Of a stretch of DNA of 64,000 bases, positions 3,778-20,229 are shown one piece after another (the stretch's first letter is position 1; every line of letters begins with the position of its first letter). The position numbers and the translations under genes were made by a program. Source of the stretch: Candidatus Aenigmatarchaeota archaeon (GTDB taxonomy: Archaea; Aenigmatarchaeota; Aenigmatarchaeia; QMZP01); the NCBI GenBank assembly GCA_043824495.1, contig JBDRSV010000005.1:7955-71954 (forward strand). Direction: 5' to 3'. The notes below the pieces were generated by a model that was not told where the DNA came from, made no database searches, and worked only from the letters and a program-made list of their open reading frames with translations.

Positions 3778-3812
3778 TGCAATGCCCTCCAGAAATGTGT
3801 GGGGTGGTCGGA

Positions 3813-4609: not shown

Positions 4610-5179
4610 TCATTCAGGTCGGGATTTGGTGATCTCTTTCAGGATCAGTTCCGTCATTTTGACTTTCCTGGCATGGCTTCTGATTATGGCAACTCGCTCG
4701 TAGATCGGGATTATCTTCCGTGCAGTGTCAGGATGATACTTGCAGAGAAATCCGATGCAAGCAATAACATCATCCTGCAACACTTGTGAGAAAATCATGA
4801 GAGCGAGACGTTCTCCGGAAACTGATCCCTTTGCCAGAGATTCGAACTCGTCCTTGTCGATGAGGGCACGGAACTCGAATTTCAGTTTCCCGGTTGTCAC
4901 GACATCGCCGTTTAGTATTGTACAATCGGCCGAGCCGCATGGCTTGCCATTGATGAATGTCAAGTTTCCCGATGTTTCGTCGTGGATGCATAACTCGTCG
5001 TTGGTCAGTTTGATACTGAAATGTGTATCCTTGAGTCCGAATTTTCCACCTTCTGGTATCGACCATTCGGATTCTGTGGATGTCCCAAAACGTACCGATG
5101 TATCCGGAACTAGATGTAAAGTGGCCTTTCCTTCTTTCGCTCCGGACCAGCGTACTTCTAGAAAGCTCCCCATTGCCAT
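4610..5179 (-). CDS. FHA-domain protein, paralogue of 5310..5978
   Basis: The start was moved to MAMGSFLEVRW (GGAGGG SD), which parallels MAMGRYLNVTW of the neighbour. FHA pattern: FGTSTESEWSIP...HFSI...IHDETSGNLTFINGKP. Confidence 0.6.
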   Translation of the reverse strand: MAMGSFLEVRWSGAKEGKATLHLVPDTSVRFGTSTESEWSIPEGGKFGLKDTHFSIKLTNDELCIHDETSGNLTFINGKPCGSADCTILNGDVVTTGKLKFEFRALIDKDEFESLAKGSVSGERLALMIFSQVLQDDVIACIGFLCKYHPDTARKIIPIYERVAIIRSHARKVKMTELILKEITKSRPE

Positions 5180-5309
5180 GCCCTCCTTCGGTGGTATGTG
5201 TAGTGTTTCATTAACTTTTGTTTTAGTTTCCGGCGAACCCGTAACATTGGAATTGCCCGGGTTTTCTACTGGAACCATCAGCGTCATTCAGGCCGGTTCA
5301 TGTTACCGG

Positions 5310-5978
5310 TCAGTCAGATCCCAGAGTGGATAGATCGTCGTCACCTATGTCTCTTGCTAACGCTCTCTCCGATTTAATTGGGGTCGGAGTACGATCCGCC
5401 GCTTTTTGGATAGCGAGATCTGTCTTATTGATAATGTCGGCACGCGTGATCGCGTTCCCTTCGTGTAAAATGGAGGATGCACGTTCTACGATTCGAATCA
5501 TCCATTCCCGTGCAGCTTGTGGCCTCTTCTCACACAAGACATCAAGACAACTGGGGAAGTCTTGTGTTCTCACTCTTGTGAGAAGTCTGAGAACCAGTTC
5601 TTCGTCACTGGCTCGGCTGGCTAACATGGCAGTGAATTCTTCCGTATCGTAGAGAACATCGAACCAGATTCTGAGTTCTCCGATGCGAATCACGCTTATA
5701 TTGTAGACGTACGTCCCACCGGACTGGACTTTTTCCTCATCCACGAAAGTGCCCGCGTTGGTTCCCAGATCATGGATCCTTAGACACTCGCCGTCATTGG
5801 CCATTGTGATCGAGAAGTGTCTGCCTTTGAAGTCTTCCTCATCAGCCGGAATCAGGAAATCGTCCCCTTCGGATTCCCCGAACACAAGTGTTTGATTCCG
5901 ATCAATTGGAATCATGTTCTCGTCTGCTGATGATGTCCCCTCTGTCCATGTTACATTTAGATAACGTCCCATTGCCAT
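5310..5978 (-). CDS. FHA-domain protein with C-terminal helical domain
   Basis: FGESEGDDFLIP...GRHFSI...IHDLGTNAGTFVDEEKV fits the FHA pattern. GGAGG SD is present. Confidence 0.65.
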   Translation of the reverse strand: MAMGRYLNVTWTEGTSSADENMIPIDRNQTLVFGESEGDDFLIPADEEDFKGRHFSITMANDGECLRIHDLGTNAGTFVDEEKVQSGGTYVYNISVIRIGELRIWFDVLYDTEEFTAMLASRASDEELVLRLLTRVRTQDFPSCLDVLCEKRPQAAREWMIRIVERASSILHEGNAITRADIINKTDLAIQKAADRTPTPIKSERALARDIGDDDLSTLGSD

Positions 5979-6053
5979 GTCCTCCTTCAGATAGATAGCT
6001 ATATTTCAGTTGCCTTCGTTTCAGTGATTAGTTCTTCTATACTTTTCGAATGC

Positions 6054-6596
6054 CTAACCGAAAATTTTACGTGCCATTCCTCGAGCCTCGCGATTTGAGA
6101 GAATAGCTCCCAGTAAAGCAGTTGTCACACACGCCAAGAACGTTAAGACAATTGGATAATAGAGGCTCGTGTTCCATGCAAACATGGGATCACCTGAAGA
6201 ACCTGATCCTACGAAGAGCCAGATGATCCAGAAAATCGCGATCCATGTCAGCCAATTGATGTAGGCAATGTAGATACCCTCACCCAGAAGAAATCTGACA
6301 TAGCCTTCTGGGATAGATGATTCCGACCAATCTCTTTTGAGCATATGTCCTCTCAGTCTATAGAGACGGAATGTTGTGAGAGGTATCATCAGGCTGCAGA
6401 GTTCGATGTAAACTCGTGTCATTTGTAGTTGTCCTGATGTCTCTTGTTCTATCAAGAGATTGCCCAATAGTGCCGCGGGAATGACGATCACCCAGAAATG
6501 CCAGGTGAATCTATCTTTGTTCGAGCGATGTACTAATAGGAAAACCATGGCCAGAACAAGAGAAAAGATTGAGATGAAGATTATGAAGTTGAACAT
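6054..6596 (-). CDS. multi-pass membrane protein, unknown function
   Basis: 180-aa ORF with about 5 hydrophobic helices. AGGAAG SD is present. It is the first gene of cassette 1. Confidence 0.55.
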   Translation of the reverse strand: MFNFIIFISIFSLVLAMVFLLVHRSNKDRFTWHFWVIVIPAALLGNLLIEQETSGQLQMTRVYIELCSLMIPLTTFRLYRLRGHMLKRDWSESSIPEGYVRFLLGEGIYIAYINWLTWIAIFWIIWLFVGSGSSGDPMFAWNTSLYYPIVLTFLACVTTALLGAILSNREARGMARKIFG

Positions 6597-6674
6597 TTTA
6601 TATCTTCCTCGGATAGAGTTCTGTCGGTATACCTCAGACTATGTAAAACACCATACAGAAGTCATTTGATATGA

Positions 6675-6785
6675 CTATTGTTCTGTGTGGTGTTGGTTCC
6701 TAGGTTACAATGCCAATATATCTGCAAGGAAATTTTCCTCAAAGATGTCTAAAGTCAATTGGCGTGAAAGTGTGGAGCATGATAT
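6675..6785 (-). repeat. Cassette 5'-leader module, copy 1 (read on minus strand: ATATCATGCTCCACACTTTCACGCCAATTGAC ... hairpin ... TTGGCATTGTAACCTAGGAACCAACACCACACAG)
   Basis: The core TCATGCTCCACA/TTCACGCCA matches 39325..39359 at 21 identities with 1 mismatch and 1 indel. The downstream TTGGC..GTA..TAGG..CAAC block is also shared. Confidence 0.7.
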
Positions 6786-6799
6786 TTTGACTATTACTA

Positions 6800-6822
6800 T
6801 TGGATAGTGAATATTTCATAGT
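6800..6822 (+). repeat. Right copy of the imperfect direct repeat bracketing cassette 1
   Basis: See 1086..1108. Confidence 0.4.
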
Positions 6823-6873
6823 AAACTTTATATTATTTAGCATTGAGAGTCGTAACAGTAAATATAGAAATTT

Positions 6874-6936
6874 ATAGAAATTACTTGATTTTCAATAGAA
6901 TTTACTTGATTCTAAATAGAAATTACTTAGAATTAT
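6874..6936. repeat. Three tandem 21-nt repeats (ATAGAAATTACTTGATTTTCA-like)
   Basis: Copies start at 6874, 6895 and 6916 with period 21, and there is a partial copy just upstream. The array lies between cassette 1 and the 3' end of gene 6933..7658. Confidence 0.7.
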
Positions 6937-7658
6937 ACAAATTCTTTCTGTGCCAGTTCATAGGCATCTGGCGTGCCTATATCAATCCACTTTCCATCTA
7001 GAATAAATCCGTATGTTGGTGTTTTCTGTCTTAACCAGTCTATAAAGAAACCCATTGTATCTTTATGGTTTCCTTCACTCAGATATTCTTCTATCAATTT
7101 TTTTGTGTTTTCAGGGAAGAAATAAACTGCAGCTGAAGCTAAAGTGCTTTTAGGATTTTCAGCTTTTTCAACAAAGTCTATTATTTTTTTATTGTCATCG
7201 AGTTGAACTGTTCCCATTTTCCTTGCTTCTACCATACTTACGTTGCTTAATCCAACAATTGGTGTTTGTTTCTCTTTGTAAAACATGAAAATTTCTTGGA
7301 GATTGTCTTGGAATATATTATCTCCACCAACAACCAAGAAATTACCATCAACAGATTCTTGGTTCATAAAATACTTCAGAGCACCAATAGAACCTAATTT
7401 TTCTTCTTCTGTTGCAACTGGTTCTACAATAAGCTGGATATCCTTTGAATATTCAAACCCAGAGAGCCATTGTTCCATTATAGGACCAAATTTAGAGTTT
7501 GTAGAAACATATACTTTTTCTAGATCCAAATGCTCCAATTTCCTTAGAGTTCTCTCTAACAAAGTCTTATTGGCTACCTTGAGTAGTGGTTTGGGTGTAT
7601 TTTCTGCTATTTTGCCCATTCTTTTTGCATGTCCACCAGCTAATACCAAAGCTTTCAT
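6933..7658 (-). CDS. sugar-phosphate nucleotidyltransferase (NTP_transferase family)
   Basis: N-terminus MKALVLAGGHAKRMGKIAENTPKPLLKV carries the typical G-rich nucleotidyltransferase signature. Confidence 0.8.
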   Translation of the reverse strand: MKALVLAGGHAKRMGKIAENTPKPLLKVANKTLLERTLRKLEHLDLEKVYVSTNSKFGPIMEQWLSGFEYSKDIQLIVEPVATEEEKLGSIGALKYFMNQESVDGNFLVVGGDNIFQDNLQEIFMFYKEKQTPIVGLSNVSMVEARKMGTVQLDDNKKIIDFVEKAENPKSTLASAAVYFFPENTKKLIEEYLSEGNHKDTMGFFIDWLRQKTPTYGFILDGKWIDIGTPDAYELAQKEFV

Positions 7659-7839
7659 ATTGGGTAATAATTGTATATGAACTAATTAATGTTTTGCGTA
7701 ACTACCGCCAATCACGAGGGAGGGCAAACCTTTATATACCATAGATTTAATTTATAAGATACCCATAAAACGATCGCAGTGAGACGGCTATATAATCTAG
7801 CATCTAGCTTGTTTAGTGATCATGTACGGAGGTAATCGT

Positions 7840-8073
7840 ATGGCAGACGTAGATTTCAAAACTGTAAAAGCTGAAGAAATTAAATTCGGTAAGAACAACT
7901 TCCTTGAAGTTGCAAGGAAAAAGGCTGTTACCGAAGAGGGTGAGACTGAATTCATTGCAATATCAAGAGGATTTTTCTCACCAGATGGATCCAAAAGATT
8001 CAAGAAGTCAATTGCACTTCCTGATGAAAAGGAAATCCGCGATTTCGTATCCAAAAAAATATTAGAACTGTAA
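7840..8073 (+). CDS. small PC4/YdbC-like ssDNA-binding-fold protein (tentative)
   Basis: The start was moved to MADVDFKTV (GGAGGT SD). The pattern FGKNNFLEVARKK...EFIAISRGFFSPDGSKRFKKSIALP resembles PC4-like proteins. Confidence 0.45.
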   Translation: MADVDFKTVKAEEIKFGKNNFLEVARKKAVTEEGETEFIAISRGFFSPDGSKRFKKSIALPDEKEIRDFVSKKILEL

Positions 8074-8212
8074 AAACAACAAAATTGGTTAATACAAGAG
8101 ATGATGAAGAACACGCTGCGAAGCTGACTTAGTCTCTGTTTTTCTTATTATTTTTCCTGTATCACATGTAGCTATTTATTGCAGTGTTCATAAGAATTAA
8201 CATAGTGATTTT

Positions 8213-9862
8213 ATGAAGGATCTGATAATGAAATATGTATTGCAGAATGCAATTTTTTATGAAGGTAAAGCTAATCCAAATGCTATTCTGGGTAAAATTC
8301 TAGGATCAGAACCTGCTCTACGAAAGAATCCAGATAAAGTGAGAAAAGAAATCGAAGAAGTTGCTAAAAAAGTAAATAGTATGGATTTAGCTAAACAAAA
8401 AGAAGAATTGAAAAAAATCGATCCCGAAATGCTTGTTAAAGAGGAGAAAGAGCAAGAAGAGCTGCCACCTCTGAAAGGAGCTGTGGAAGGTAAAGTTGTA
8501 ACAAGATTTGCTCCTTCACCTACTGGTCCTTTGATGATTTATCATTTACTAAGAGCAGTTTATTTGAATTATTTGTATGCACAGAAGTATAACGGAAAAT
8601 TTATTGTTAGAATTGAAGATACAGACCCTGGTAATATCAAAAGAGAATTCTATGAGTGGATAAAAGAAGATTTGAAAAACTCTGGTGTTAAATGGGACGA
8701 ATTGTTTCACCAATCCGATCACATGGATTTGTACTACAAAAATGCAGAGAAATTGATACAAAAGAATGATGTATATGCTTGCTTCTGTAATCCTGACCAA
8801 TTCAAGAAACTCAAGAATAAAAAAATGAATTGTCCTTGTAGAGATGAAGGTAAAACAAAATTCCATTGGGATAAAGCTGTTAGAGGTGATTATGCAGAAG
8901 GAGAAATGATTTTTAGATTGAAAACTTCTATGCAAGATCCTAACCCAGCTATAAGAGATCCTGCATTATTCAGAATAAATAAAAAACATCATCCCTTTAA
9001 AACAATAAAATACAAACTATGGCCTCTGTACAATTTTGCTAATACAATTGATGATCACGAGATGGGTGTTACTCATGTATTCAGAGGAAAAGAACATGAA
9101 CATAACACGACAATACAGAAGATGATTTATGAGAAACTAGGCTGGAAAATGCCTTTTGTGATTAATTTTGGTATGATATATCTTCCAGGAGTCAAGTTGC
9201 ATACTAGAGATATCAAGCAAATGATTGCAGAAGAAAAGTTCACCGGATGGGATGATGTGAGATTACCAACAATCAGATCCATTATTAGACGAGGATTTCA
9301 ACCAGAAGCTATTAGAGAGCTAGCGATTTCAAGCGGTTTAACAAAAACAGATATAAACGTGAGCTGGGAGAAGTTCGAAACTCTTAATAGAAAAATAATA
9401 GATAAAAAAGCTAACAGATACATGGTTGTAAAATCTCCGGTTAGATTAGTAATCAAAGATGCTCCTTCTATGAATCAGGTGAGAGAAAAGATACACCCAG
9501 AATCTGAGAAGACTAGGATCATTCCAGTTAATCTGAAAGAGATATACATAGAGAAAGAAGATTACATAAGACTAAAGGATAGAGATTTCAGATTGAAAGG
9601 TTTGGGTAATATCAGAGTCACAGGTAAAACTGGACGGTATTTAGGTAACGAGATCTACAAAGACATGCATAAGATACAGTGGGTATCTAAACCTCATGCA
9701 GAGGTTATTATTCTAAAGGGTGACGATGTCATTCATGGTATTGGTGAACCTGGGTTAAAGAAACTACACCCAGGTCAAATAATCCAGATGGAGAGAATTG
9801 GTTTTGGTAAGGTAGATGCAAGAACAGATAATGAGATTGTCATCATCTTTGCTCATAGGTAA
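8213..9862 (+). CDS. gltX: archaeal-type glutamyl-tRNA synthetase
   Basis: RFAPSPTGPL...FIVRIEDTDP, THVFRGKEH, GWDDVRLPT and ERIGFG blocks are colinear with archaeal GluRS as I recall it. The archaeal N-terminal extension is present. Confidence 0.85.
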   Translation: MKDLIMKYVLQNAIFYEGKANPNAILGKILGSEPALRKNPDKVRKEIEEVAKKVNSMDLAKQKEELKKIDPEMLVKEEKEQEELPPLKGAVEGKVVTRFAPSPTGPLMIYHLLRAVYLNYLYAQKYNGKFIVRIEDTDPGNIKREFYEWIKEDLKNSGVKWDELFHQSDHMDLYYKNAEKLIQKNDVYACFCNPDQFKKLKNKKMNCPCRDEGKTKFHWDKAVRGDYAEGEMIFRLKTSMQDPNPAIRDPALFRINKKHHPFKTIKYKLWPLYNFANTIDDHEMGVTHVFRGKEHEHNTTIQKMIYEKLGWKMPFVINFGMIYLPGVKLHTRDIKQMIAEEKFTGWDDVRLPTIRSIIRRGFQPEAIRELAISSGLTKTDINVSWEKFETLNRKIIDKKANRYMVVKSPVRLVIKDAPSMNQVREKIHPESEKTRIIPVNLKEIYIEKEDYIRLKDRDFRLKGLGNIRVTGKTGRYLGNEIYKDMHKIQWVSKPHAEVIILKGDDVIHGIGEPGLKKLHPGQIIQMERIGFGKVDARTDNEIVIIFAHR

Positions 9863-10981
9863 TTAAAGAACAAAAACACCGCTTTCTACTATTTCTTCTG
9901 CATAAGCTTCAGCAGCTCTAATTGATTCAGATAATGAAGCACCACCTTCAAGTCCTCTTTCAACCATTCTTCTAACTATATGAGGCAGGTTTCCATGAGC
10001 TTCATATGTTCGAGGTAAATGAGTTCGCCACTGGAAAAGCTCAAGGCCTATCTGATTAGCCTCATCTAATCTAGTATCAAGATTAAGCATGGTATTCAAG
10101 TTAATATCTCCTGGTCTATGATTATAATAACCATCTTTGATTCCTTCTAATACCCATTCTCTTGTATATCTCTTACCTACCCCGAACTCTCGACCACTCC
10201 ATGGATGACGTTTATTCAAATTCCATCCATTACCACTTATGTCCCTCATGGTTAATATTTCTTCCATTACAGCTTTAACTTCTACATGTGTACCATCTGA
10301 ATCAAATGATGCACAATCCAAATCCACCGGGACTACTCTTATTCTATCATCATCTTGATATACCACAAAATTTCCAGGGTGTGCATTTTCTAATCCCCAT
10401 TCAACACCAGAATCTTTCATTAATCTCATTGTGTATCCTGCATCACGTCCAAGACTAACTAGAACATCTCTATACTCTGTAAACGGTGAAAGACCAACAA
10501 AAGAAACAAACATTTCTCTAAAATCTAAGTATTTGAGAAGTTCATCTAATCTTGTATCACCCTCTATTTCAAAAATTGTTGCTCTTGTTCCCTTAGATCC
10601 ATTATAATCATAATAACCAAGTGGATTCATAACATACGTTATTCCAGCTTCTGTTTTTAACCTCTCAGCTAGTCGTTCTGCATGTTCGATCTCATTGTCA
10701 GCATTTGGTGTAAGCTGTCTTCCATATGGTTCGTCATCATTCCAATTACTAGGAGTTTCCGCAAAAACACAACCTTTAATTCTGTATAAATTATCTAAAA
10801 CTTCGGCTAATCCAGAGCGTTTGCCACTTTCTAACCCCACTAAATTATATTCATCTCTATCTGAAATTATTGCTACTGGTCTAGAGAGTGATTCTGGAAG
10901 GCTCTTACCGGGTAATAAAGTTACAGAACCATCTACGTAACTTAAGCCCCTTTGTCCTCTGGGGGAAAACAATCTACTCAT
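9863..10981 (-). CDS. hypothetical protein with protein-kinase-like motifs
   Basis: 372-aa ORF. ENAHPGNFVVY ... VVPVDLDCA resembles the HxxN catalytic loop and DxD of APH/kinase-fold proteins. Confidence 0.5.
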   Translation of the reverse strand: MSRLFSPRGQRGLSYVDGSVTLLPGKSLPESLSRPVAIISDRDEYNLVGLESGKRSGLAEVLDNLYRIKGCVFAETPSNWNDDEPYGRQLTPNADNEIEHAERLAERLKTEAGITYVMNPLGYYDYNGSKGTRATIFEIEGDTRLDELLKYLDFREMFVSFVGLSPFTEYRDVLVSLGRDAGYTMRLMKDSGVEWGLENAHPGNFVVYQDDDRIRVVPVDLDCASFDSDGTHVEVKAVMEEILTMRDISGNGWNLNKRHPWSGREFGVGKRYTREWVLEGIKDGYYNHRPGDINLNTMLNLDTRLDEANQIGLELFQWRTHLPRTYEAHGNLPHIVRRMVERGLEGGASLSESIRAAEAYAEEIVESGVFVL

Positions 10982-11070
10982 AAAACATAATGTTATCGTT
11001 AAATTTATAAATTGACATCACGATTTCAGAGAAGAGCGCTTTTGCTCATAGGTAATTCTTTGTAAATCAA

Positions 11071-13155
11071 TCACGAAGTAACTAAGAATTGAGACATTGC
11101 GTCTTCTATTAAGCCACCGAACATTGTGCTCACACCAAACATGACTAGGAAGTATAACACCAAACCAACTATTATCATTTTTCCTATATTGTTCCATTGA
11201 GCAACTGGGTTGTCTCCTTTTGATATCTTTGTTAAGAACATTCCGAGTATCATGATAACTTGGATCAAGTATATACCAATTATGAGTTGGAATAATGCTG
11301 GTGATGTGGAAGGTGCTCCAACAATCAGTAGAGAAATATCAATACCTAGAGAATCCTCGAATCCAGCATTTTGCATCAGCTGGCCCATTGTTACTAGTAC
11401 TTGTATTATGATATCAGCCATTGCAACTATCATACCAGTGATTATGGGTGTCAAGAAATATGCCTGAAACTTCATTGATGATGTTGTTTCAGTGAGTAGC
11501 TCTCTTATGTATTCTTGTGTTTCTCTTATGTTTTTCAAATACCTAGATATTCTAAGCATACTGTCTGCTGCATAAGTAACGCCTTTCTTAGATGTGTCTA
11601 TTACAGCATACATGATATTGTTGATTATTTTTGATGGGTAGTATTGAAGAGCTCCCCATTTTTTATGGAATAGTGAGTCTTCGAATGTCATACCAAGAGT
11701 CTTAATATTAGCTAATGATCTTTTGAATAAACCAGCTATCTTCAAATCTTTTACATCATCTATAGCTCTCTCAATAGCCACTTCTGTAGGAGTTCCTCCT
11801 GAAATCTTATTTCCTAATTTGAACAACGCTAATTCGAATTCGCTTTCTATACTCTCTATTTCTTCTTGTATTCTCTGTTTCTGGTAATTTGACAACAACA
11901 AGAAAGCTGATATAGCAAAACCTAACCCCATTATGAAAAATGATGACATTAACATTGTAAATTGTGGATTTGTATCTAGAACAGGAATTGTTCCTGCTCC
12001 TGTTGGGGGGAATAATAATTCAGGTGTGGTCCCAAAATATATTATTGGAAGTATCCAGAAACCGATTATTATCAACAATGAAATTGGCCATGCTGGTATA
12101 GATCTACCTTTGATAGAGAAGCTGTGGTTCTTAGGTACATCTGGATGTTTGGATATATCTATCTGCGATAGAGTTACAGGTCTCTTGTTTAATGTATTCA
12201 GAATAAACCACGTGATGATAATAGGTAATGCTATGTCATATCCTATTATGAAATGTATTGGTGATACTAAATCTGACAAGAACACTGCGGCCATTGGAGC
12301 CATTATTGTTCCCATTATAGGTAACACAATACCCATCATGTGGATAACCATGACAGGCATTAATAAATCCTGTGCATAGTGCTTCATTCTTGTCTTTGTT
12401 CCGGTTAAAATAACTTCTAGAGCTTGATCAAGTTCTTTTTTTGCTCTGTCTGGTGTCTGAGATTGAGAGTCTCTTATCAGTCTCAAAGCCTCTGCAAATT
12501 CCTCATTCTCAAATTTCCATCTTATTATATAGTCATCAAGAGCGTCGTTGGCTGAATAATATTTTCTCATCTCTATATCCCAGATAAGCTTTCTCAAATC
12601 CCATGCCAATGCTCCAGATACATTTGAAGCTGCGAATCTTAGAGCACGCTCCATATTAGGAGAAACTCTCATGGACACAACCATGTATAGTATAGCAAGA
12701 ACTACTTGAGAGCTTGCTTGAATACGTAGAGTTTTTACTCTACTCGATGGGTATTTGTAGAAATAATATGCAACAAGGAAACCCATTGCTGCTATAACAA
12801 GACCTATCATTACAGAAACAATTCCTGTGATTATGAATGTTACACCTAGGAGAATGAAGAATATTATTGTTGTGGCCATCAGACCCATTATTTCCGCTGG
12901 TGTTATGTCCATCTCTGTAAAGAGGATAGCAGATTCTAGTTTTTCTTTAGATCCTCTATCTGGATCTATTTTAGCCATACTACCTACAGCTTTCACAAGA
13001 ACTTCATACCAGCCAGGTTTCTCTTCGTCCCCTTTCTTGTATAATCTATACTCTCTTGTTGTGACTACTGGTTCTTCTTGATAATAAGATCTTTCGGCTG
13101 GACGATAAGAAGGTGGCCTTTGTATCTTCCTCTTTTTCTTCCCAAACAAACCCAT
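11071..13155 (-). CDS. polytopic membrane protein, probable T2SS-F/FlaJ/TadC-family pilus assembly platform
   Basis: 694 aa with two repeats of a soluble helical segment followed by TM helices, as in GspF/FlaJ-family proteins. Confidence 0.5.
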   Translation of the reverse strand: MGLFGKKKRKIQRPPSYRPAERSYYQEEPVVTTREYRLYKKGDEEKPGWYEVLVKAVGSMAKIDPDRGSKEKLESAILFTEMDITPAEIMGLMATTIIFFILLGVTFIITGIVSVMIGLVIAAMGFLVAYYFYKYPSSRVKTLRIQASSQVVLAILYMVVSMRVSPNMERALRFAASNVSGALAWDLRKLIWDIEMRKYYSANDALDDYIIRWKFENEEFAEALRLIRDSQSQTPDRAKKELDQALEVILTGTKTRMKHYAQDLLMPVMVIHMMGIVLPIMGTIMAPMAAVFLSDLVSPIHFIIGYDIALPIIITWFILNTLNKRPVTLSQIDISKHPDVPKNHSFSIKGRSIPAWPISLLIIIGFWILPIIYFGTTPELLFPPTGAGTIPVLDTNPQFTMLMSSFFIMGLGFAISAFLLLSNYQKQRIQEEIESIESEFELALFKLGNKISGGTPTEVAIERAIDDVKDLKIAGLFKRSLANIKTLGMTFEDSLFHKKWGALQYYPSKIINNIMYAVIDTSKKGVTYAADSMLRISRYLKNIRETQEYIRELLTETTSSMKFQAYFLTPIITGMIVAMADIIIQVLVTMGQLMQNAGFEDSLGIDISLLIVGAPSTSPALFQLIIGIYLIQVIMILGMFLTKISKGDNPVAQWNNIGKMIIVGLVLYFLVMFGVSTMFGGLIEDAMSQFLVTS

Positions 13156-13262
13156 GATTAATAATTGGCTTGGCTCCTAATAAAAATCGGAGTTTTCTGG
13201 TGTTTTTGGGCATATCTTTAAAAATCTGTCAAGGAAAAGCTGATCAACAGCATAAAGGTGAC

Positions 13263-13370
13263 TATCATATTCCACTCTCAAAAAATCTACAATTTGTATC
13301 AGATAAACAAAGCGTTTAATCTGAAAATGTCTTCATGGACCCATAAATCAACGCACACAAAACACGAAAT
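13263..13370 (+). repeat. Cassette 5'-leader module, degenerate copy 2
   Basis: TATCATATTCCACTCTCA resembles TATCATGCTCCACACTTTCA. It is followed by the hairpin CAGATAAAC-aaagc-GTTTAATCTG and a CAACGCACACAAAAC block resembling CAACACCACACAGAAC of copy 1. Confidence 0.45.
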
Positions 13371-13522
13371 AACACAAAGTGCATTGTTAGCTTAAGCTAT
13401 GGAGAATGAGAAGCCTGAGAGTGATTTTTTCTGTCTTCTGTAAAGAAATTACCAGACTTTTGTCTTAGACGAGAGTCTTTCGCCAATAGAAAAAAATGAT
13501 TCATTGATATGGGGGGTGAACA

Positions 13523-14353
13523 ATGATATCGTGTAAATCAAAACAGGTGGATTCAACACGGCTTGACGCTAGGCCGAAAAAGCGACGAATGCCAGTTCAG
13601 GTCTCGCGTGCCTGGGATGCGTATTTCAGCTCCGGCGACCCTGGTGTTCGTCAGAACCTTCTCAATCATTACCTGCCGCTCGTATGCAATGTGGCGGGTA
13701 GGATGGCTCTAGGCTTTCCCAAAGCTGTTGAGCTGAATGATTTGATTTCCACAGGCACGATCGGCTTGTGCCAGTCCTTAAAGAACTTCGATCCTAAACG
13801 AGGCGTCAAGTTCGAAACCTTTGCGGTTCCCCGAATCCGTGGTGCAATTCTCGACGAGATGCGCAGCTTGGATTGGGTGCCGCGTTCCACACGCTCGAAA
13901 GCACGTAAGATTGATCGAGTCACAACTCAGATCGAACAACAACAGGGACGTGTGTCAATGCATAATGAACTCGCTGTCCTTCTGAAGATCCCGCTGGACG
14001 ATCTGCTAGTGGTGCTGACAGATATTTCGGCATCAAGGCTTATGTCCTTGGATGAATTGGTATATCGAGAGGAGGACAATAGGCAGGTTCCGAGAGTCGA
14101 GACACTCGAACTTCCTGTGAGAAGAGATGCCTTGAGAGAGGTCGAACGCAGAGAGCTAAAGGTATTCCTCATTAACGCCATTTCTACTCTCAACGAGCAA
14201 GAGACACATGTCATTGGCTTATACTACTACGATGAGCTTACCATTCGTGAGATTGGCGAACTCATGAATCTCTCGGAATCCCGAATCTCGCAGGTTCACA
14301 CTAGGTCTGTGGAAAAGTTGCGAAGAATGGTGCGCGATAGATTCGGATACTGA
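13523..14353 (+). CDS. fliA: bacterial FliA/WhiG-type (sigma-28) RNA polymerase sigma factor
   Basis: Region 2 reads LNHYLPLVCNVAGRM...DLISTGTIGLCQSLKNFDPKRGVKFETFAVPRIRGAILDEMR. Region 4 reads LNEQETHVIGLYYYDELTIREIGELMNLSESRISQVHTRSVEKLR. GGGGGGTGA SD is present. Confidence 0.85.
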   Translation: MISCKSKQVDSTRLDARPKKRRMPVQVSRAWDAYFSSGDPGVRQNLLNHYLPLVCNVAGRMALGFPKAVELNDLISTGTIGLCQSLKNFDPKRGVKFETFAVPRIRGAILDEMRSLDWVPRSTRSKARKIDRVTTQIEQQQGRVSMHNELAVLLKIPLDDLLVVLTDISASRLMSLDELVYREEDNRQVPRVETLELPVRRDALREVERRELKVFLINAISTLNEQETHVIGLYYYDELTIREIGELMNLSESRISQVHTRSVEKLRRMVRDRFGY

Positions 14354-14443
14354 ACAACCAACTGTAAATAACGACGCTCATGCCGGGTTTTGTCCGGGCG
14401 GAGAAAGAAAATACAAATGAGAACGAATGGATAAGGAGGGCAA

Positions 14444-14620
14444 ATGCTCCTATGTCAGGAGTGTCACCAAAAACGGGGATGTTATTGGGGTATTCACCCA
14501 CACACTACCAATGGGTCTTGTGGTTGTTGTGGTACGCAAACAGCTTGCGTCGAATGTAATACCCTAGAAACATCTTCACGTCCGATCTCTATGGAAGCCA
14601 CCGAGAATTTCATCGGCTAA
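14444..14620 (+). CDS. 58-aa cysteine-rich protein (not in ORF track, below its length cutoff)
   Basis: AAGGAGGG lies 4 nt before the ATG. Translation MLLCQECHQKRGCYWGIHPHTTNGSCGCCGTQTACVECNTLETSS... contains 9 Cys. Its position right after a sigma gene suggests a zinc-binding partner or anti-sigma factor, which is inference only. Confidence 0.45.
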   Translation: MLLCQECHQKRGCYWGIHPHTTNGSCGCCGTQTACVECNTLETSSRPISMEATENFIG

Positions 14621-14643
14621 GAAATACCAAGCTCGAGAATCAT

Positions 14644-14670
14644 GTGTGTCCCATAACACACTTGGTTCTT
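14644..14670 (+). terminator. hairpin GTGTGT-cccata-ACACAC followed by a T-rich tract
   Basis: A 6-bp perfect stem lies immediately after the last cassette-2 ORF and runs into TTGGTTCTTTATATT. Confidence 0.4.
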
Positions 14671-14694
14671 TATATTGTCTAATTAGAGGGATAT
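14669..14694 (-). repeat. Cassette 3'-flank motif, copy B (reverse complement: ATATCCCTCTAATTAGACAATATAAA)
   Basis: 23/26 identical to copy A. It ends 2 nt before the ATG of backbone ORF 14697. Confidence 0.85.
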
Positions 14695-14696
14695 GA

Positions 14697-15449
14697 ATGA
14701 AAGAAATAAAAAACTTACTATCTAAGTATAAAAGATCTGATATGGCAACTGAAGGATATAAAAGAGTGGTTTTGGGTGCAGGAACTATTGAACCTCATCA
14801 TCTTCTTGTTGTTTATTCTCTTTTCGAACCCGGCAGTGAAGTACAAGCAGTTGATCATAAAGGACGACTTTTAGTAAAGAGAGGCAAAAGATCTCATTAT
14901 AAACTACTTACAACCGATTCTGGTCTCCTGGTTGCGACAAGTGAAGATATACCACTACCAAATGAAGAGCCTTTAGCTTCGAGTTATACAGATGCACATG
15001 TAGGAAGTACAACACCTGATGCTATTGATAGGATCATGAGTGATTGGTTAAAATATTTAGCAGAAACATTTGGAAATCAATATCAAACAGCTCTTATAGC
15101 TGATAATCTTAGTATGTTTTCTTTAGGACGTTCTGTATACAAACCTGATGGAGATAATTCTATCGTTGTTAATACTTCTCAATATAGCAATAAGAAACCA
15201 GTCAGTACATTGAGATTGCATTCAGTTGATGGTATTCAAGATGATATATTTGATACAGGCGGATGCAAAAATCCTCTTGATGTTATGAATAAACTATTTG
15301 AAGAGGAGCAATCCACCTTCGCTGCTGTTGCTGCTTTTGATGGATCTGTGGAACCTGGAGCAGAAATGAATAGAGGAGAACCGCGACATAGAATAATACC
15401 TCCTGGTAGCGGAGAATGGCAGTTACATATAAGAAATAGACACAAGTAA
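14697..15449 (+). CDS. hypothetical protein
   Basis: 250-aa AT-rich ORF with no recognisable motif. Confidence 0.6.
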   Translation: MKEIKNLLSKYKRSDMATEGYKRVVLGAGTIEPHHLLVVYSLFEPGSEVQAVDHKGRLLVKRGKRSHYKLLTTDSGLLVATSEDIPLPNEEPLASSYTDAHVGSTTPDAIDRIMSDWLKYLAETFGNQYQTALIADNLSMFSLGRSVYKPDGDNSIVVNTSQYSNKKPVSTLRLHSVDGIQDDIFDTGGCKNPLDVMNKLFEEEQSTFAAVAAFDGSVEPGAEMNRGEPRHRIIPPGSGEWQLHIRNRHK

Positions 15450-15485
15450 TTAGATAAATATAAGGATATTTTTTCAATCTTAATT

Positions 15486-16070
15486 ATGACATTACCAATG
15501 ACACGAGAACAAGCAGTTGAATTCTTGAAGAGTATGGACCAAGAAGAATCAGATATGAATCATTACTTAGAAACAGAGGCTATAATGCGTGGTCTTGCAA
15601 GAAAATTTGAAGAAGATGTTGAGTATTGGGGAATTCTAGGCTTACTGCACGATGTTGATTGGGCATTAACAAAAAACAATGTGAAAGATCATTGTATTAA
15701 ATCTGCAGAGCTCTTGAAAGAAAAAGGATTTGATGAGAAATTTATCCAAGCAATGCAATCTCATGCATATGGTCATGATGAAATACCAGCGTTGTTGGAT
15801 AAAAAAAGAACAGAGAAAATAGAACATGCTCTAACTGCAGCTGAAACATTAACAGGAATCATTTATGCTTACGCTTTGATGCGAGGTAAAAGGATTAGTG
15901 ACATGGAAGTCAAAGGACTGAAAAAGAAGTTCAAAGATAGGAGCTTTGCTGCAAATTGTGATAGAAACCTAATCAGAGAAATAGAAATAACTGGATTATC
16001 TCTAGATGATTTTTTTGAACTGGCAATCAATTCTTTGAAGGAAATAAAAGAAGTAATTAGTTTGCAATAA
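15486..16070 (+). CDS. HD-domain metal-dependent phosphohydrolase
   Basis: The H...HD pattern is present (NHYLETEA, GLLHDVDW). Confidence 0.7.
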   Translation: MTLPMTREQAVEFLKSMDQEESDMNHYLETEAIMRGLARKFEEDVEYWGILGLLHDVDWALTKNNVKDHCIKSAELLKEKGFDEKFIQAMQSHAYGHDEIPALLDKKRTEKIEHALTAAETLTGIIYAYALMRGKRISDMEVKGLKKKFKDRSFAANCDRNLIREIEITGLSLDDFFELAINSLKEIKEVISLQ

Positions 16071-16109
16071 AGAAAAAGAAGGAAAAGAGGTTTATACTTT
16101 AGGTGGTAG

Positions 16110-17129
16110 CTAAAGAAGAATAACTCCCCTTTCCTGTAAATCCTTTTCTACTTCTTCTGGCCATGTGCTTACTTGAACTTCTCCTATATGGGTCTTGTGT
16201 AGTAGAAGCATACATAATCTAGATTGTCCGATACCACCACCAATAGTGAGAGGTAATTCGTCCATGAGAATTGCTTTGTGAAATTTTAATCCTTTTCTTT
16301 CAGATAATCCCATGAAATCTAGTTGCTTCATAAGAGAAGATTGATCAACTCTTATACCCATTGAAGATAGCTCCAAAGCTTTCTTTCTCATTTCGTCCCA
16401 GACAATGATGTCACCATTGAGACCCCTTTTTCCAGAAATGGTTTCTGTAGACCAGTCGTCATAATCTGCAGCCCGAAGGTCATGGGGTTTTCCTGATTTC
16501 AAAGGATATCCTATCCCTATCAAAAACACTGCTCCATATTTTTCTGCTATTTTATCTTCTCTCTTTTTAGGAGACAGTTGAGGATAGAGTTCTTCTAGTT
16601 CTTCTGTGTGTACAAATGTTATCTTTTTAGGTAACTTTGTTTTCAATTCAGGGAATTCCTTTTCTACTTCTGTTTTTGTTTCTAGTATAGATTCGTATAT
16701 ACTTCTTACAGTTTCTTTTAGGAATTCTAGATCTCTTTCTTCCTTTGTGATCACTCTTTCCCAATCCCATTGATCTACGAACACGCTGTGTGTATCATCT
16801 ATGTCCTCATCTTTTCTGATTGCATCCATATGTGTATACAAACCAGTTCCATGTTTGAATCCATGTCTACCTAGAGTATGTCTCTTCCATTTAGCTAGGC
16901 TGTGTACAATTTCTAGACGTGCATCTGCGAATTTGGTTTCAAATCCAACTGGAATTTGAGTTCCTGCGAGGTCGTCTTGTAGACCAGTTCCTGTTTTCAG
17001 GAATTTCGGTGCAGACACTTTTCTTAGTCTAAGCTTCTCTGCAAGTTTTTTTTCAAATGTGTCCTTTACTAATTGTATTCCTTTTTCTGTTTCGAAAAAG
17101 TCAATTTTTGACTTATATTTTTCTTTCAT
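16110..17129 (-). CDS. asnA: aspartate--ammonia ligase (asparagine synthetase A)
   Basis: Long blocks match E. coli AsnA as I recall it: VHSLAKWKR, GLYTHMDAIRKDED, HSVFVDQWDWERV, DYDDWST, GLNGDIIVW, ELSSMGIRVD, TIGGGIGQSRLCMLLL. Confidence 0.9.
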   Translation of the reverse strand: MKEKYKSKIDFFETEKGIQLVKDTFEKKLAEKLRLRKVSAPKFLKTGTGLQDDLAGTQIPVGFETKFADARLEIVHSLAKWKRHTLGRHGFKHGTGLYTHMDAIRKDEDIDDTHSVFVDQWDWERVITKEERDLEFLKETVRSIYESILETKTEVEKEFPELKTKLPKKITFVHTEELEELYPQLSPKKREDKIAEKYGAVFLIGIGYPLKSGKPHDLRAADYDDWSTETISGKRGLNGDIIVWDEMRKKALELSSMGIRVDQSSLMKQLDFMGLSERKGLKFHKAILMDELPLTIGGGIGQSRLCMLLLHKTHIGEVQVSTWPEEVEKDLQERGVILL

Positions 17130-17243
17130 ATGATCACCTTATTTTTCAATAAATCTAATACCTTAAATTAATATCCCAAAAAATGTGGTAAAAATGACAA
17201 AAAACAGTGGTATTTATATATTAAATGGAACATATGTTTCATT

Positions 17244-17693
17244 ATGGGTCAAATAGACGAGAAAGACATGAAGATTTTGAAAGTTCTAGAAGAACATGGA
17301 GACTATACAACTAGACAGATTTCTAAGAAGACGCTGTTACCTGCAACTACAATACATAACAGGATTAAGAATTTGAAGAAAATTGGAGTGATTAAAAAAT
17401 TCACTGTTGATCTTGATCATTCTAAAGTAGATAAAGGGTTGCTTGTTTATGTTCTAGTCTCTGTGAATTTACAATTGTTAAAACAAAGGAAGAAGAGTCA
17501 ATATGATATTGCAAATGAAATAAGAAAATTCTATTTCACTGATAAAGTTGATATAGTATCTGGTGGAACAGATCTAATGGCTGTTGTGAGAGTTAAAGAC
17601 GTGCAAGAATTCGATAAAGTTTTGCTAGAAAAGCTTCAGATGATTGAGGGTATAGAAAAAACACAATCATTGATCGTAATACATGAAGATTAG
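17244..17693 (+). CDS. Lrp/AsnC-family transcriptional regulator
   Basis: It has an N-terminal wHTH (DMKILKVLEEHGDYTTRQISKKTLLPATTIHNRIKNLKKIGVIKKF) and a C-terminal RAM-like domain. It is divergent from asnA. Confidence 0.85.
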   Translation: MGQIDEKDMKILKVLEEHGDYTTRQISKKTLLPATTIHNRIKNLKKIGVIKKFTVDLDHSKVDKGLLVYVLVSVNLQLLKQRKKSQYDIANEIRKFYFTDKVDIVSGGTDLMAVVRVKDVQEFDKVLLEKLQMIEGIEKTQSLIVIHED

Positions 17694-17729
17694 CTTGCAT
17701 TTTAATATCAAACAAACAAATAATAAACC

Positions 17730-18572
17730 ATGCTAGAATGGATATTGCTTGCAGTTGGTGTTGTAGGTTTTGGAGCAGCTGGTTATCTTGATTTGAAGAC
17801 AACAGAGTTTCCAGATTGGCTTCCTTATTCAATTATAATTGCAGCTTTGGTTATACGTGGTATTTTTGCATATACTACAGGCAATTTAGATTTGATAATC
17901 AATTCTATAACAATTGGAGTAGGGTTCTTACTATTCGGTCTAGCTTTATACTATCTCAGACAGTGGGGAGACGGTGATGCTTGGTTGTTAGGGGCTCTAG
18001 GTTTCTTATTCCCTGATGCAGCAGGATTTATTCCAGCTGCAACTCTAAACTTGCCTTTCTACTATATACAGATATTCAATTTCTTCTTAGTAGCTTTTGC
18101 TTACTTGATAATTTACTCTCTGGCTTTGGGAATGAAGAATCCAAAAATATGGAAGAGTTACAAAAAGGATTTGATTAAAGACAAAAATGGATTGATTATT
18201 TTGATTGTTGCATTTGCTGCAATAGCTTTAGGTGTTGTATATTATCTAAACATATCTGCAGGAATTCCTTTGTATAGAATGTACAATATTTTGTTGTTGC
18301 CACCATTATTCATATTCTTAATATTATTCGTAAGATATGGAAGACATATAGAGAAGGTGCTATTCAGAAAACAAATAGATGTAAAAGATTTGACAGCTGG
18401 AGATGTTCCGATGACTGACAAATGGAGAGTCTTAGATGACAAGGAAGTCAAGGAGCTAAAAAAGAAAGGTGGAAAGATCTGGATAAAAGAAGGAGTCAGA
18501 TTGGCACCTGTATTTATAATCTCTATGTTGATAAGCATTTTCTTTGGCACTTTGCTAGTTTTGTTTATCTAA
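17730..18572 (+). CDS. A24-family prepilin/preflagellin peptidase (PibD/FlaK-like)
   Basis: It is polytopic and carries both catalytic Asp motifs: YLDLKTTEFPDWL and WGDGDAWLLGALG. Confidence 0.8.
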   Translation: MLEWILLAVGVVGFGAAGYLDLKTTEFPDWLPYSIIIAALVIRGIFAYTTGNLDLIINSITIGVGFLLFGLALYYLRQWGDGDAWLLGALGFLFPDAAGFIPAATLNLPFYYIQIFNFFLVAFAYLIIYSLALGMKNPKIWKSYKKDLIKDKNGLIILIVAFAAIALGVVYYLNISAGIPLYRMYNILLLPPLFIFLILFVRYGRHIEKVLFRKQIDVKDLTAGDVPMTDKWRVLDDKEVKELKKKGGKIWIKEGVRLAPVFIISMLISIFFGTLLVLFI

Positions 18573-18607
18573 AATACTTTTATTTCTAAGGGGTAAATGA
18601 GTATTAT

Positions 18608-19327
18608 ATGAAGACGGTATTGGTGAGTGGTGGTACATGGGGCATAGGAAAAGGTGCAGTTATCCAACTACTTAAAGACGGGTTTAATGTTTCTGCGTTT
18701 TCTAGAGATCATAAAAAATGTGATACTTTCAAAAAAGAACTAGAAAGAGATTATGATAAAGAACGATTTCTTATAATGGATGGTGACGTAACAGATGAGG
18801 AAAATTTGCACACAATTATTAATGAAACATTGAAGAAATTTAAAAAAATAGATATTCTATTCAACAATGCAGGTTTTGGTTATTTTGAAGATTGTGATAA
18901 AGTAGACATTGATAGATTCCAAGAAATGGTTCAAACAAACATAATTGGTTTGTCTTTACTCACGAAGCTAATCGTACCTCATATGAAAAAACAGAAGTCT
19001 GGGTTGATAATAAACATGGCATCAATTTCAGGTAAGAGAGCTTTTGCTAACGGAGAATTCTATAGTGCAACAAAGTTTGCTGTTATGGGCTATTCTGAAG
19101 CTATTAGAAATGAACTCAAACCTTTTGGCATAAAAGTATTCACAATATGTCCAGGTATGGTTGAGACAGCATTTTTCACAGAAGAAGAGTTAGCAAGACG
19201 AAGAAAAACTTTAGGAATAAAAAATATAGTGAGACTTAGGGTAGAAGACATTAACAGAATAATTAGTTTAGTTTGTAATCAGTCAGAGCATTGTGACATC
19301 CAAGATCTAACAGTAATGCCGTTTTAG
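18608..19327 (+). CDS. short-chain dehydrogenase/reductase
   Basis: VLVSGGTWGIGKG (TGxxxGIG), NNAG and YSATK motifs are present. Confidence 0.85.
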   Translation: MKTVLVSGGTWGIGKGAVIQLLKDGFNVSAFSRDHKKCDTFKKELERDYDKERFLIMDGDVTDEENLHTIINETLKKFKKIDILFNNAGFGYFEDCDKVDIDRFQEMVQTNIIGLSLLTKLIVPHMKKQKSGLIINMASISGKRAFANGEFYSATKFAVMGYSEAIRNELKPFGIKVFTICPGMVETAFFTEEELARRRKTLGIKNIVRLRVEDINRIISLVCNQSEHCDIQDLTVMPF

Positions 19328-19331
19328 AAAA

Positions 19332-19799
19332 CTAATTATGCCTGTAAGCCATAGGACGCACATTTTCGTCATAATCTGTATAATCATCTACTCTAATCAA
19401 TGCTGTAGTCTCAAAAATTGTTGAAGTTACACTATATCTTGAGAGTCCTCTTCTCAGATAAAAAATAAGAGTATCTCCAAATTGGAAATCATCTCCTTCA
19501 GGTTTGAAATCATCTTCAGAATAATAAGCTGCTACATGATCCCCAAACTCTCTTGAAGTTAGAGGGGTTCTTACACCGTTGAATTTAAGGTTTTCTATTG
19601 TTCTGGTTCCCATGCTTTTTGTGAAAGAGGTTGCCATTCTACCAATTTCTATGAGAGAAGCTAATTCCGGAGAATCATCATAATCGCCTAATCTTTTTTC
19701 TATTCCACCTAGTATATCTTCTGTGGTGACTTCAGTACCTTCTCCGCCTATTCTCTCTTGTAAATAATCTTTCAGGGTTTGTCTTGACATGTAAATCAC
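19332..19799 (-). CDS. hypothetical protein
   Basis: 155-aa ORF with backbone composition. Confidence 0.5.
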   Translation of the reverse strand: MIYMSRQTLKDYLQERIGGEGTEVTTEDILGGIEKRLGDYDDSPELASLIEIGRMATSFTKSMGTRTIENLKFNGVRTPLTSREFGDHVAAYYSEDDFKPEGDDFQFGDTLIFYLRRGLSRYSVTSTIFETTALIRVDDYTDYDENVRPMAYRHN

Positions 19800-19920
19800 T
19801 TGGTTTAGAAATACGATAAGACTTTTTAAAGATTTGCCATGTCAGAATCAAAAAATATATAAAAAAAATAAAAAAATGGGGATTGCTCCCCTTACAGTTT
19901 AAGCTGGTAACATTATGAGT

Positions 19921-20229
19921 TTATCTTCCTCTGATTGTTTTAATTCTTTCTACACCAACTTTTCTAACTGTTGGTTTCCATACGCTTGCTGGTAGCCAAT
20001 CGACTCTGCTGTCTGCTGGGACTGTAACCTTTGCTCTAGAACCCTTGAAGATGTGAATTGTGTAAGTTCTGTCTTTGTTCCTTCGTCCTCGTTCTCTGAG
20101 TCTTATTTCTGTATATCCTCTTGTTGCGGCTTTCAAAGCTGCTTGTCTTGGCTGTCTACCAGTAAAGATAGAAACTCGACTTCCTTTCTTAAGAATGTAA
20201 TATTTCTTTTTTGCTTTTCTTCTAGCCAT
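19921..20229 (-). CDS. archaeal chromatin protein MC1
   Basis: FTGRQPRQAALKAATRGYTEIRLRERG matches the MC1 signature as recalled from Methanosarcina MC1 (FTGKQPRQAALKAANRG...IRLRERG). Confidence 0.8.
   Translation of the reverse strand: MARRKAKKKYYILKKGSRVSIFTGRQPRQAALKAATRGYTEIRLRERGRRNKDRTYTIHIFKGSRAKVTVPADSRVDWLPASVWKPTVRKVGVERIKTIRGR

Follow-up and report, generated by a model that had tools for sequence, protein, structure and literature searches.

An intact FliA/WhiG-type sigma factor gene of apparent Zixibacteria origin in one of 19 motif-ended cassettes of an Aenigmarchaeota archaeon

What could an intact bacterial flagellar-type sigma factor gene be doing in the chromosome of an archaeon? 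The question is raised by a 64,000-nucleotide (nt) stretch of DNA from a Candidatus Aenigmatarchaeota archaeon (GenBank assembly GCA_043824495.1, contig JBDRSV010000005.1, positions 7,955 to 71,954, forward strand), here called the window, whose numbering is used unless another contig is named. Within it, a FliA/WhiG-type sigma-28 gene, fliA (13523 to 14353, + strand; 276 amino acids [aa]), and a cysteine-rich mini open reading frame (ORF; 14444 to 14620, + strand) occupy a block rich in guanine plus cytosine (GC) at 13266 to 14693. An earlier, sequence-only reading had pointed out the sigma gene in its archaeal surroundings, seen no polymerase for it, and suggested the mini-ORF as a possible anti-sigma factor or partner. 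Our analysis indicates that the sigma gene is probably Zixibacteria derived, that purifying selection has kept it intact, and that it is cargo of one of 19 such blocks, or cassettes, whose common 3′ motif would be the operator of a zinc-ribbon/helix-turn-helix (HTH) protein encoded elsewhere in the genome. That genome (labelled G000) measures 1.01 Mb, with a completeness of 80% and a contamination of 0.2%, and the carrier is a small, symbiont-type Aenigmarchaeota archaeon.

The sigma ORF is what it had been taken for. It is uninterrupted, exceeds the cut-offs of both the FliA/WhiG profile TIGR02479 (233.9 bits; cut-off, 189.6) and the FliA profile NF005413 (217.2 bits; cut-off, 201), and contains sigma-70 regions 2, 3, and 4 (PF04542, PF04539, and PF04545), all above the Pfam cut-offs. 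Residues 43 to 269 align with Escherichia coli FliA (6PMI); there is no N-terminal extension, and the structure model is of low confidence (predicted local distance difference test score, 65). Among 2,923 relatives the closest are 70 to 71% identical, those with a taxon name being Zixibacteria, and in a quick tree of 120 proteins, where the placement of long branches is doubtful, the sigma nests among Zixibacteria on a terminal branch of 1.02 versus a median of 0.047 (ca. 20-fold). To judge from these comparisons, the gene is Zixibacteria derived. No closer source was found among 5.8 billion clusters, and the protein was found on this contig only. In most of the bacterial loci listed, fliA lies downstream of flhF/flhG-like genes (neighbor labels judged by eye), and a sigma-28 box precedes the gene in 22 of 28; upstream of the archaeal gene, both this box and the donor operon neighbors flhF-flhG are absent. 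One substitution, E237D, matches by numbering position 203 of enterobacterial FliA, presumably the site of a FlgM-bypass allele (an assignment unconfirmed in the literature searched).

The backbone around the gene is archaeal, as had been claimed: the glutamate-tRNA ligase gene at 8213 to 9862 (+ strand) scores 501.9 bits against the archaeal gltX profile TIGR00463 (cut-off, 401.75), and an archaeal threonyl-tRNA synthetase editing domain is present. The GC content is 0.50 in fliA versus 0.36 in each flanking gene, with a sharp step in GC and CpG at the block borders. Such a step could betray a bacterial fragment mis-joined into an archaeal contig, the outcome that the sequence-only reading had itself singled out as fatal. 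A Logan contig of 33,318 bp (depth, 39.4), which may derive from the source sample and would then count as a second assembly and not as a second sample, spans window positions 6000 to 20000 without difference or gap and gives a mis-join no support. The donor operon neighbors are missing and the protein has no other contig, and identical ends delimit 19 blocks in this genome and recur in 31 relatives; an assembly artefact is, on these grounds, extremely improbable. The archaeon also seems to offer the sigma no polymerase, again as stated from the sequence: in this 80%-complete genome nothing passes the cut-off for bacterial rpoB (TIGR02013), the three sub-cut-off pieces all lying in the split archaeal RpoB gene, the only one there. 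Neither a FlgM match nor the 3′ end of the 16S gene was found in the genome. Among RNA data sets, none was listed for positions 12000 to 16000, and two RNA runs from the same study contributed a single short, unrelated piece, which carries no weight in either direction.

Purifying selection has kept the sigma intact on its long branch. Compared with the consensus of 14 sister proteins over 247 sites, 71 sites differ, including 37 of the 61 variable sites and 10 of the 105 invariant ones, for which neutral change predicts 28.8 ± 3.6 (minimum, 16 in 3,000 runs, only 203 of which stayed stop free). The substitutions are conservative (mean BLOSUM score, +0.21 versus a neutral −0.61 ± 0.19) and unevenly distributed, with 8 of 73 sites changed in region 2, 1 of 23 in the region 3.2 finger, 27 of 54 in the linker and region 3, and 7 of 24, conservatively, in region 4.2. 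Pairwise ratios of nonsynonymous to synonymous change met saturated synonymous sites.

Where this selection acted can be approached through composition. At four-fold sites, the GC content of the sigma gene is 0.52, that of the host 0.19 ± 0.06 (526 genes), and that of eight bacterial homologues 0.60 to 0.80. When drift was simulated from the closest DNA homologue, L090, with host bias down to a four-fold-site GC of 0.52 (0.38 substitutions per site), the predicted change at variable sites was 32.6 ± 5.2 of 61 (observed, 35) and at invariant sites 55.7 ± 8.0 of 105 (observed, 10), and none of 1,000 runs left a stop-free gene. Because a single dose of host-biased drift fits both the loss of GC and the change at free sites, the simplest reading, not a proven one, is that selection acted inside the AT-biased archaeal chromosome.

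The block that houses the gene is built like 18 others in the genome. Its 5′ leader (13266 to 13522, + strand) begins with the left-end motif (T)CATRYTCC and contains a hairpin at 13299 to 13324 (fold z, −2.0) and, at 13511 to 13519, the fliA ribosome-binding box GGGGGGTGA, an archaeal-style GGTGA box; homologous leaders precede other cassettes and are found in the related genome G001. The end of the block is as had been described, a hairpin (14635 to 14669, + strand; z of −3.2, with 1 of 200 shuffles as good) that resembles an intrinsic terminator with its short 3′ T run, followed by the 3′ motif TTTRYAY-TGTC-N8-GGGATA (14669 to 14693, + strand). Genome-wide, 20 motif sites score above 20 bits, after which there is a gap in the scores; 19 close a GC-rich block and 1 lies in a promoter. 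The order is constant: leader, co-oriented bacterial-type genes, hairpin with T run, and 3′ motif. Together the cassettes amount to 61.6 kb in multigene blocks of 1 to 9 kb, dispersed over four contigs with few tandem pairs, and 49 of their 54 ORFs of at least 100 aa are directed toward the motif. GC at third codon positions is 0.54 in cassettes versus 0.27 in the host, AGGAG-type boxes precede 29 of 48 cassette genes versus 89 of 858 host genes and 18 of 76 genes of the bacterial fliA loci, and a hairpin (z < −2) abuts the motif in 15 of 19 cassettes versus 11 of 150 control windows.

The left end could be placed, by eye, in 15 of the 19 cassettes, with partly homologous leaders behind it. 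In related genomes its matrix gave 31 matches in 197 kb upstream of motifs versus 21 in 305 kb of control sequence, a modest excess; matches stand immediately 5′ of the first co-oriented gene in G001, G008, G320, and G018, none being convincing in G314, and the G001 leader matches those of G000 (BLAST E value, 0.001). The 3′ motif occurs in 32 of 91 genomes of the order and 28 of 46 of the family, a reversed control pattern giving 6 matches in total.

The motif has a probable binding partner. A zinc-ribbon/HTH protein is encoded outside the window, between two motif copies, at G000:C24:108305-108694 (+ strand). Its predicted structure has a zinc ribbon and three helices; it shares homology with the front part of IS6-like transposases (36 to 37% identity; E values, 4e-18 and 8e-16; template-modeling score to their clusters, 0.89 to 0.90) and lacks the DDE domain, and searches of the PDB by sequence and by fold gave no match. 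The short gene is single copy, occurs in 23 of 91 genomes, and is 47 to 68% conserved across genera. Among the 32 motif-positive genomes 23 have it, and among the 59 motif-negative ones none does (Fisher p of 1e-14; within the family, 22/7/0/18 and p of 1e-7; related genomes are not independent in either test). Four of the nine motif-positive genomes without it have a single site and the other five are 63 to 75% complete; G026, from another family, has both motif and gene. A motif lies within 130 nt upstream of the gene at 15 of 23 loci versus 1 of 150 host genes, and downstream at 13 of 23. At seven loci the best site (above threshold in five) is at −35/−36 on the opposite strand, centered on the gene's own TATA box; in host genes, TATA boxes are most frequent at −30 to −27. 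The layout is, as far as sequence can tell, that of an autoregulated operator, and co-occurrence and position together suggest that the protein binds the motif as its operator throughout the genome.

An alternative would be that the motif is what remains of the end of an IS6-type element by which foreign DNA was once brought in, with no system operating at present. The homology of the zinc-ribbon protein to the transposase front would suit this, as would two motif copies lying head to head ca. 20 nt apart in G004 (L052:2241-2293), like a miniature inverted-repeat transposable element, and a peptidase-M20 cassette (L020; G000:C24:46122-49573) flanked by a direct repeat: a tyrosine-recombinase gene stands on one side, and on the other is a second copy of its 3′ end (322 bp, 93.5% identical). 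PF13610, the IS6-like transposase family, was however found in only 5 of 91 genomes, not including G000, and the motif flanks none of these five loci (inverted repeats were searched at four). The left end, too, is conserved, and a single-copy protein, 47 to 68% conserved and under its own motif, indicates maintenance, not decay. We therefore consider such scars very unlikely.

The unit inserted at the L020 locus takes in the TATA box 5′ of the leader. Seven tyrosine-recombinase matches were found in the genome; the cassette-adjacent one, the only one tracked, was not found at an E value of 1e-30 in the motif-rich genomes G314, G018, G005, and G316. IS110 (PF01548) and serine recombinases (PF00239) had no match in G000 (80% complete), and one reverse transcriptase was located. 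The one Y1 transposase, an IS200-like one lying inside a methyltransferase gene (L204; G000:C23:4087-4554), was set aside on account of its own ends, one of which shares a few letters with the motif core. At the fliA cassette, TAT stands at both ends (13257 to 13268 and 14686 to 14699), and excision would bring a GGTGA box to 6 nt before the start of the next ORF (14697). Searches for a circle junction (the joined ends form a near-palindrome) gave two chance matches in phage coding sequence and only ordinary motif sites in relatives, and no empty site could be shown for this cassette.

What would the archaeon gain from cargo of this kind? CsrA (in G001 and G021), pilins, PurH, and acyl-CoA dehydrogenase recur among the genomes; STAS and FHA domains, a type IX secretion system (T9SS)/FlgD tail, PEP-CTERM, and a response regulator are also found, and most cargo has no family. 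CsrA, STAS, the T9SS/FlgD tail, PEP-CTERM, the pilins, and the response regulator need or suit bacterial machinery. For the sigma, we propose that the Zixibacteria fliA would have entered the Aenigmarchaeota chromosome as cargo of one of 19 self-contained cassettes, each probably read by the archaeal polymerase from its left end as a separate unit, and that the zinc-ribbon/HTH protein, bound just past the hairpin, would close or control all of them together. The sigma would then reach a Zixibacteria-type partner cell, as protein or as cassette RNA or DNA, and switch on the partner's sigma-28 genes, motility or developmental. The weakest step is this one: the target would be the polymerase of the partner because regions 2, 3.2, and 4.2 have been spared in a cell where no bacterial core polymerase was found. 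We regard such action on a bacterial partner as quite possible, if short of probable, and as the likeliest of the readings considered.

Several observations weigh against this proposal. Four of the eight region 2 changes cluster at residues 79 to 85, at sites that are 89 to 100% conserved, in a helix that we take to contact the core polymerase, which is a point against full sigma activity. The drift argument needs L090 as a stand-in for the ancestor: three more distant proxies misfit the count at variable sites, as expected of non-ancestors, the deficit at invariant sites persisting with them. A TATA-like box at −31 to −22 was found at 8 of 15 left ends (versus 115 of 367 host starts) and not at the fliA cassette, where the nearest is at −49. 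In the cassette leaders, sigma-70 promoters are at chance level (7 versus 6.7 ± 2.5), and so are sigma-28-like sites in the cassettes as a whole (1 in their 61.6 kb and 7 in the genome). Cargo turns over, G000 and G001 sharing one homologous pair (39% identity), and much of it is plain metabolism that an archaeon could use itself (PurH, PurM, PyrE/F, HisI, and peptidases). One GC-rich cassette of 3.6 kb with leader and motif, L022 (G000:C24:111232-114850, − strand), has no long ORF on either strand, its cargo being either decayed or noncoding; an Rfam search of L022 and L171 gave one chance match. No delivery route was found, TrwB-like ATPase matches being weak only and TrwC-type relaxase (PF08751) having no match in 47 genomes, and the sigma lacks any N-terminal extension. 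Bacterial hosts for this phylum are, moreover, argued against by Li et al. 2021 (PMC8407114).

Some of these points would also suit a passive role. The sigma may have diverged under selection in an unsampled bacterial replicon of ca. 50% GC (a phage, a plasmid, or a fast-evolving symbiont), been taken up along with other DNA by the cassette system, and now lie idle; the motif and the protein that goes with it would then merely bound or insulate foreign blocks. Cassette codon use is in fact donor-like and not simply half-way to the host (ATA fraction for isoleucine, 0.14; donors, 0.19; host, 0.52), and the turnover of cargo within the genus, the one decayed cassette, and the lack of delivery genes and bacterial promoters all agree with it. 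Against this, no such replicon was seen: the 5.8 billion clusters hold no closer source, eight other cargo proteins are singletons at 90%, the sole viral match is a fragment, and run X1 gave no second contig at least 90% identical over the gene. Long intact ORFs also persist in 18 of the 19 cassettes of a 1-Mb genome, and the drift fit from L090 requires no intermediate. An idle passenger is, in our view, a close rival of the partner reading, possible but slightly less likely.

The archaeon might instead make the sigma and use it without a core polymerase, as an HTH regulator through region 4.2 or as a single-strand or −10 binder, perhaps for the cassettes. Sigma genes are not confined to this locus: across the phylum, 69 of 371 genomes gave matches to sigma-70 region 2, and of 20 such loci inspected by eye, 3 resemble bacterial contigs and 8 or more have archaeal-type neighbors. 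In G000 itself, two tandem sigma-70-like genes, of 231 and 211 aa and each with a TATA-like box in front, lie outside the cassettes at G000:C5:105033-106458 (− strand); their host-like four-fold-site GC values of 0.22 and 0.14 suggest that sigma genes do become resident. The archaeal-style box at the fliA start points the same way. The best-conserved parts of the protein, however, are regions 2 and 3.2, and the region 3.2 finger acts only within the holoenzyme; the genome, moreover, has no excess of sigma-28 boxes. Repurposing within the archaeon thus appears unlikely.

FliA-like matches at an E value of 1e-15 are rarer, being found in 4 of the 371 genomes: G000, G026, G040, and G324, the last doubtful since it lies in a 67%-GC region. 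The gene of G026, a genome of the same order (L172; G026:C301:8084-11830), is an unrelated second case, 37% identical, with an N-terminal extension of ca. 170 aa and host-type neighbors. Relatives also carry several RpoD-like sigma genes that encode 500 to 840 aa (L054, L058, L060, L063, L065, and L070), some of them in tandem. The lone sigma-28-like promoter within a cassette (L021; G000:C24:93462, + strand) has textbook spacing, lies between an M32 peptidase gene and a lipoprotein-like ORF, and may be due to chance.

And the small gene behind fliA? The 90-nt gap and the 58 codons are as had been described, and so is the Shine-Dalgarno (SD) box AAGGAGGG, located at 14433 to 14440 (+ strand) with AGGAGG 4 nt from the ATG; the translation has 8 cysteines, one fewer than the 9 counted earlier, and 3 histidines, arranged in two CxxC pairs plus a CxCC. 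On the sense strand of the cassettes, AGGAGG occurs 4 to 9 nt 5′ of an ATG 14 times, each time before an ORF of at least 50 aa, and the 4-nt spacing of the mini-ORF is that of three long cassette genes (225, 311, and 399 aa). Eight cysteines with two CxxC pairs were seen in none of 321 off-frame chunks and none of 1,913 shuffled ORFs. The codon score (−0.13) resembles that of off-frame DNA, a value as low being found in just 0.7% of true chunks, and is exceeded by that of an overlapping 46-aa + frame without SD box (14427 to 14567), which had gone unmentioned together with a 59-aa one (14380 to 14559). With some reservation, we think it probable from these features that the mini-ORF is a real orphan gene for a small metal-binding peptide.

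An anti-sigma role, by contrast, is very doubtful. The mini-ORF matches no family in Pfam or NCBIfam, its exact sequence is absent from a 15-billion collection, and searches for homologues gave only two giant Cys-rich repeat proteins and one phage match (E value, 0.4); the Atlas matches (0.91 to 0.92) are unnamed clusters only, with low recognition. No relative next to a sigma gene was detected by tblastn that included 80 bacterial fliA loci (best E value, 0.07), and in the bacterial loci listed other genes stand 3′ of fliA. FlgM, RsiG, and zinc anti-sigma factors were each considered and dropped for lack of a family match and of conservation beside a sigma. Zinc anti-sigma factors carry a His-x3-Cys-x2-Cys pattern, which is absent from the translation. 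The sequence-only reading had held that a mini-ORF conserved nowhere would count against it; since no conservation was found anywhere, its partner proposal falls. Most likely, the mini-ORF is simply a small gene standing last in the cassette: from its stop to the motif core there are 55 nt, inside the range of the other cassettes (31 to 151 nt), compared with 322 nt for fliA.

The neighbors on either side have host composition. To the left, a membrane protein gene (11071 to 13155, − strand) has a weak T2SS-F/TadC-like match (PF00482; E value, 9e-4, below cut-off) and a relative at the matching G001 locus; to the right, an orphan ORF (14697 to 15449, + strand) begins 3 nt past the motif, has no Pfam or NCBIfam family, and lacks a match in any of the archaeal family's 46 other genomes. 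Three sister cassettes with the same leader and motif lie in the window, carrying FHA-domain and unknown genes (1122 to 6781, − strand), Ig-like and unknown genes (39331 to 41485, + strand), and thiolase and crotonase-like genes (57155 to 60672, − strand). A short ORF of host composition, with four CxxC pairs (39085 to 39243, + strand), is situated immediately 5′ of the cassette at 39331, and the 689-aa product of 30712 to 32781 (+ strand) has three DsbA/thioredoxin domains in tandem. Just past the window, a 364-aa protein contains a topoisomerase IB catalytic core (PF01028; E value, 5e-14; L030:2481-3575, on G000:C5). Among the relatives, the single-contig genome G320 has all five motif sites on the + strand of its first half, with cassettes containing PurH, PurM-like, PyrE/PyrF, and acyl-CoA dehydrogenase genes, and among the cargo of L050 (G010) and L269 (G021) are an opine-dehydrogenase-family gene, whose neighbor is weakly porin-like, and an XerC-like recombinase.

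A bolder, speculative extension, which we hold to be rather unlikely, would make this Aenigmarchaeota family parasites of diderm bacteria that deliver cassette RNA or DNA into the host for expression there, reprogramming it in the manner of transferred DNA (T-DNA). The cassettes (sigma-28, CsrA, anti-anti-sigma, pilins, T9SS/PEP-CTERM substrates, and nucleotide and opine enzymes) would then form a regulon under a domesticated transposase DNA-binding protein. If the partner reading is true, an archaeon would be acting on the transcription of a bacterium, for which the literature searched holds no case. New in any event are the homologous 5′ leader family and the single-copy zinc-ribbon/HTH protein tied to the motif. 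A dispersed cassette set associated with a domesticated transposase DNA-binding protein appears to be undescribed, no description of the cassettes or of the protein having been found in the literature searched, which covered few subscription papers. With the motif and its candidate binding protein, islands that had no explanation become a protein-DNA system open to test, and the two together can be scored as markers in any genome of the Aenigmarchaeota.

How does this compare with known systems? The sigma resembles its Zixibacteria counterparts in its 70% identity and conserved regions 2, 3.2, and 4.2; it differs in lying outside the flhF-flhG-fliA operon, in having no sigma-28 box and no FlgM match, and in its ca. 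20-fold median branch. Phages carry sigma factors, and Agrobacterium has its T-DNA. By analogy, the archaeon may resemble these parasites in keeping genes, sigma factors included, for the machinery of a host; unlike them, the carrier here is a cell of another domain, and neither transfer machinery nor a partner was found. The IS1 protein InsA regulates its own promoter, and the zinc-ribbon protein likewise appears to do so, a functional analogy.

The candidate binding protein corresponds to the zinc-ribbon/HTH front of IS6/IS26 transposases (Harmer and Hall 2019, PMC6807381); it differs from these elements in the lack of DDE and of paired ends around a transposase and in being a single-copy conserved protein whose sites mark gene blocks. 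The cassettes share with those of integrons, including archaeal ones, co-oriented foreign ORFs, a hairpin end, and cross-domain uptake (Ghaly et al. 2022, PMC9668308). Unlike the tandem arrays of short cassettes described there, they are 19 dispersed multigene blocks with their own leaders, with a fixed double-strand motif 3′ of a variable hairpin, and the tyrosine recombinase beside one of them apparently does not go with the motif. A MOB-F origin of transfer (oriT; R388/TrwC) needs a sequence-specific hairpin arm 5′ of the nick and leaves the 3′ sequence free, according to PMC4176350; this likeness was rejected, for the hairpins here vary, the invariant letters are mostly 3′, and the exact nine-letter match occurs at 6 of 137 sites.

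The nearest precedent is the set of sigma-70 genes in DPANN archaea (fam00359), likewise bacterial sigma genes in DPANN genomes, for which Castelle et al. 2021 (PMC8204110), in the part available, excluded mis-binning, found no anti-sigma, left the function unexplained, and noted a prevalence in Woesearchaeota. That a sigma in an archaeon is an oddity, as the sequence-only reading had it, accordingly stands for a polymerase-less FliA/WhiG gene in a motif-ended cassette, and not for sigma-70 in DPANN as such. Why these archaea keep bacterial sigmas, and whether any of them has a bacterial host, are questions raised as open in the same source, whose accessible part names no FliA type, donor, or cassette. 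The gene described here brings to them a traceable, named donor clade, an unameliorated composition, a cassette, a measurable signal of selection, and an activity that can be directly assayed.

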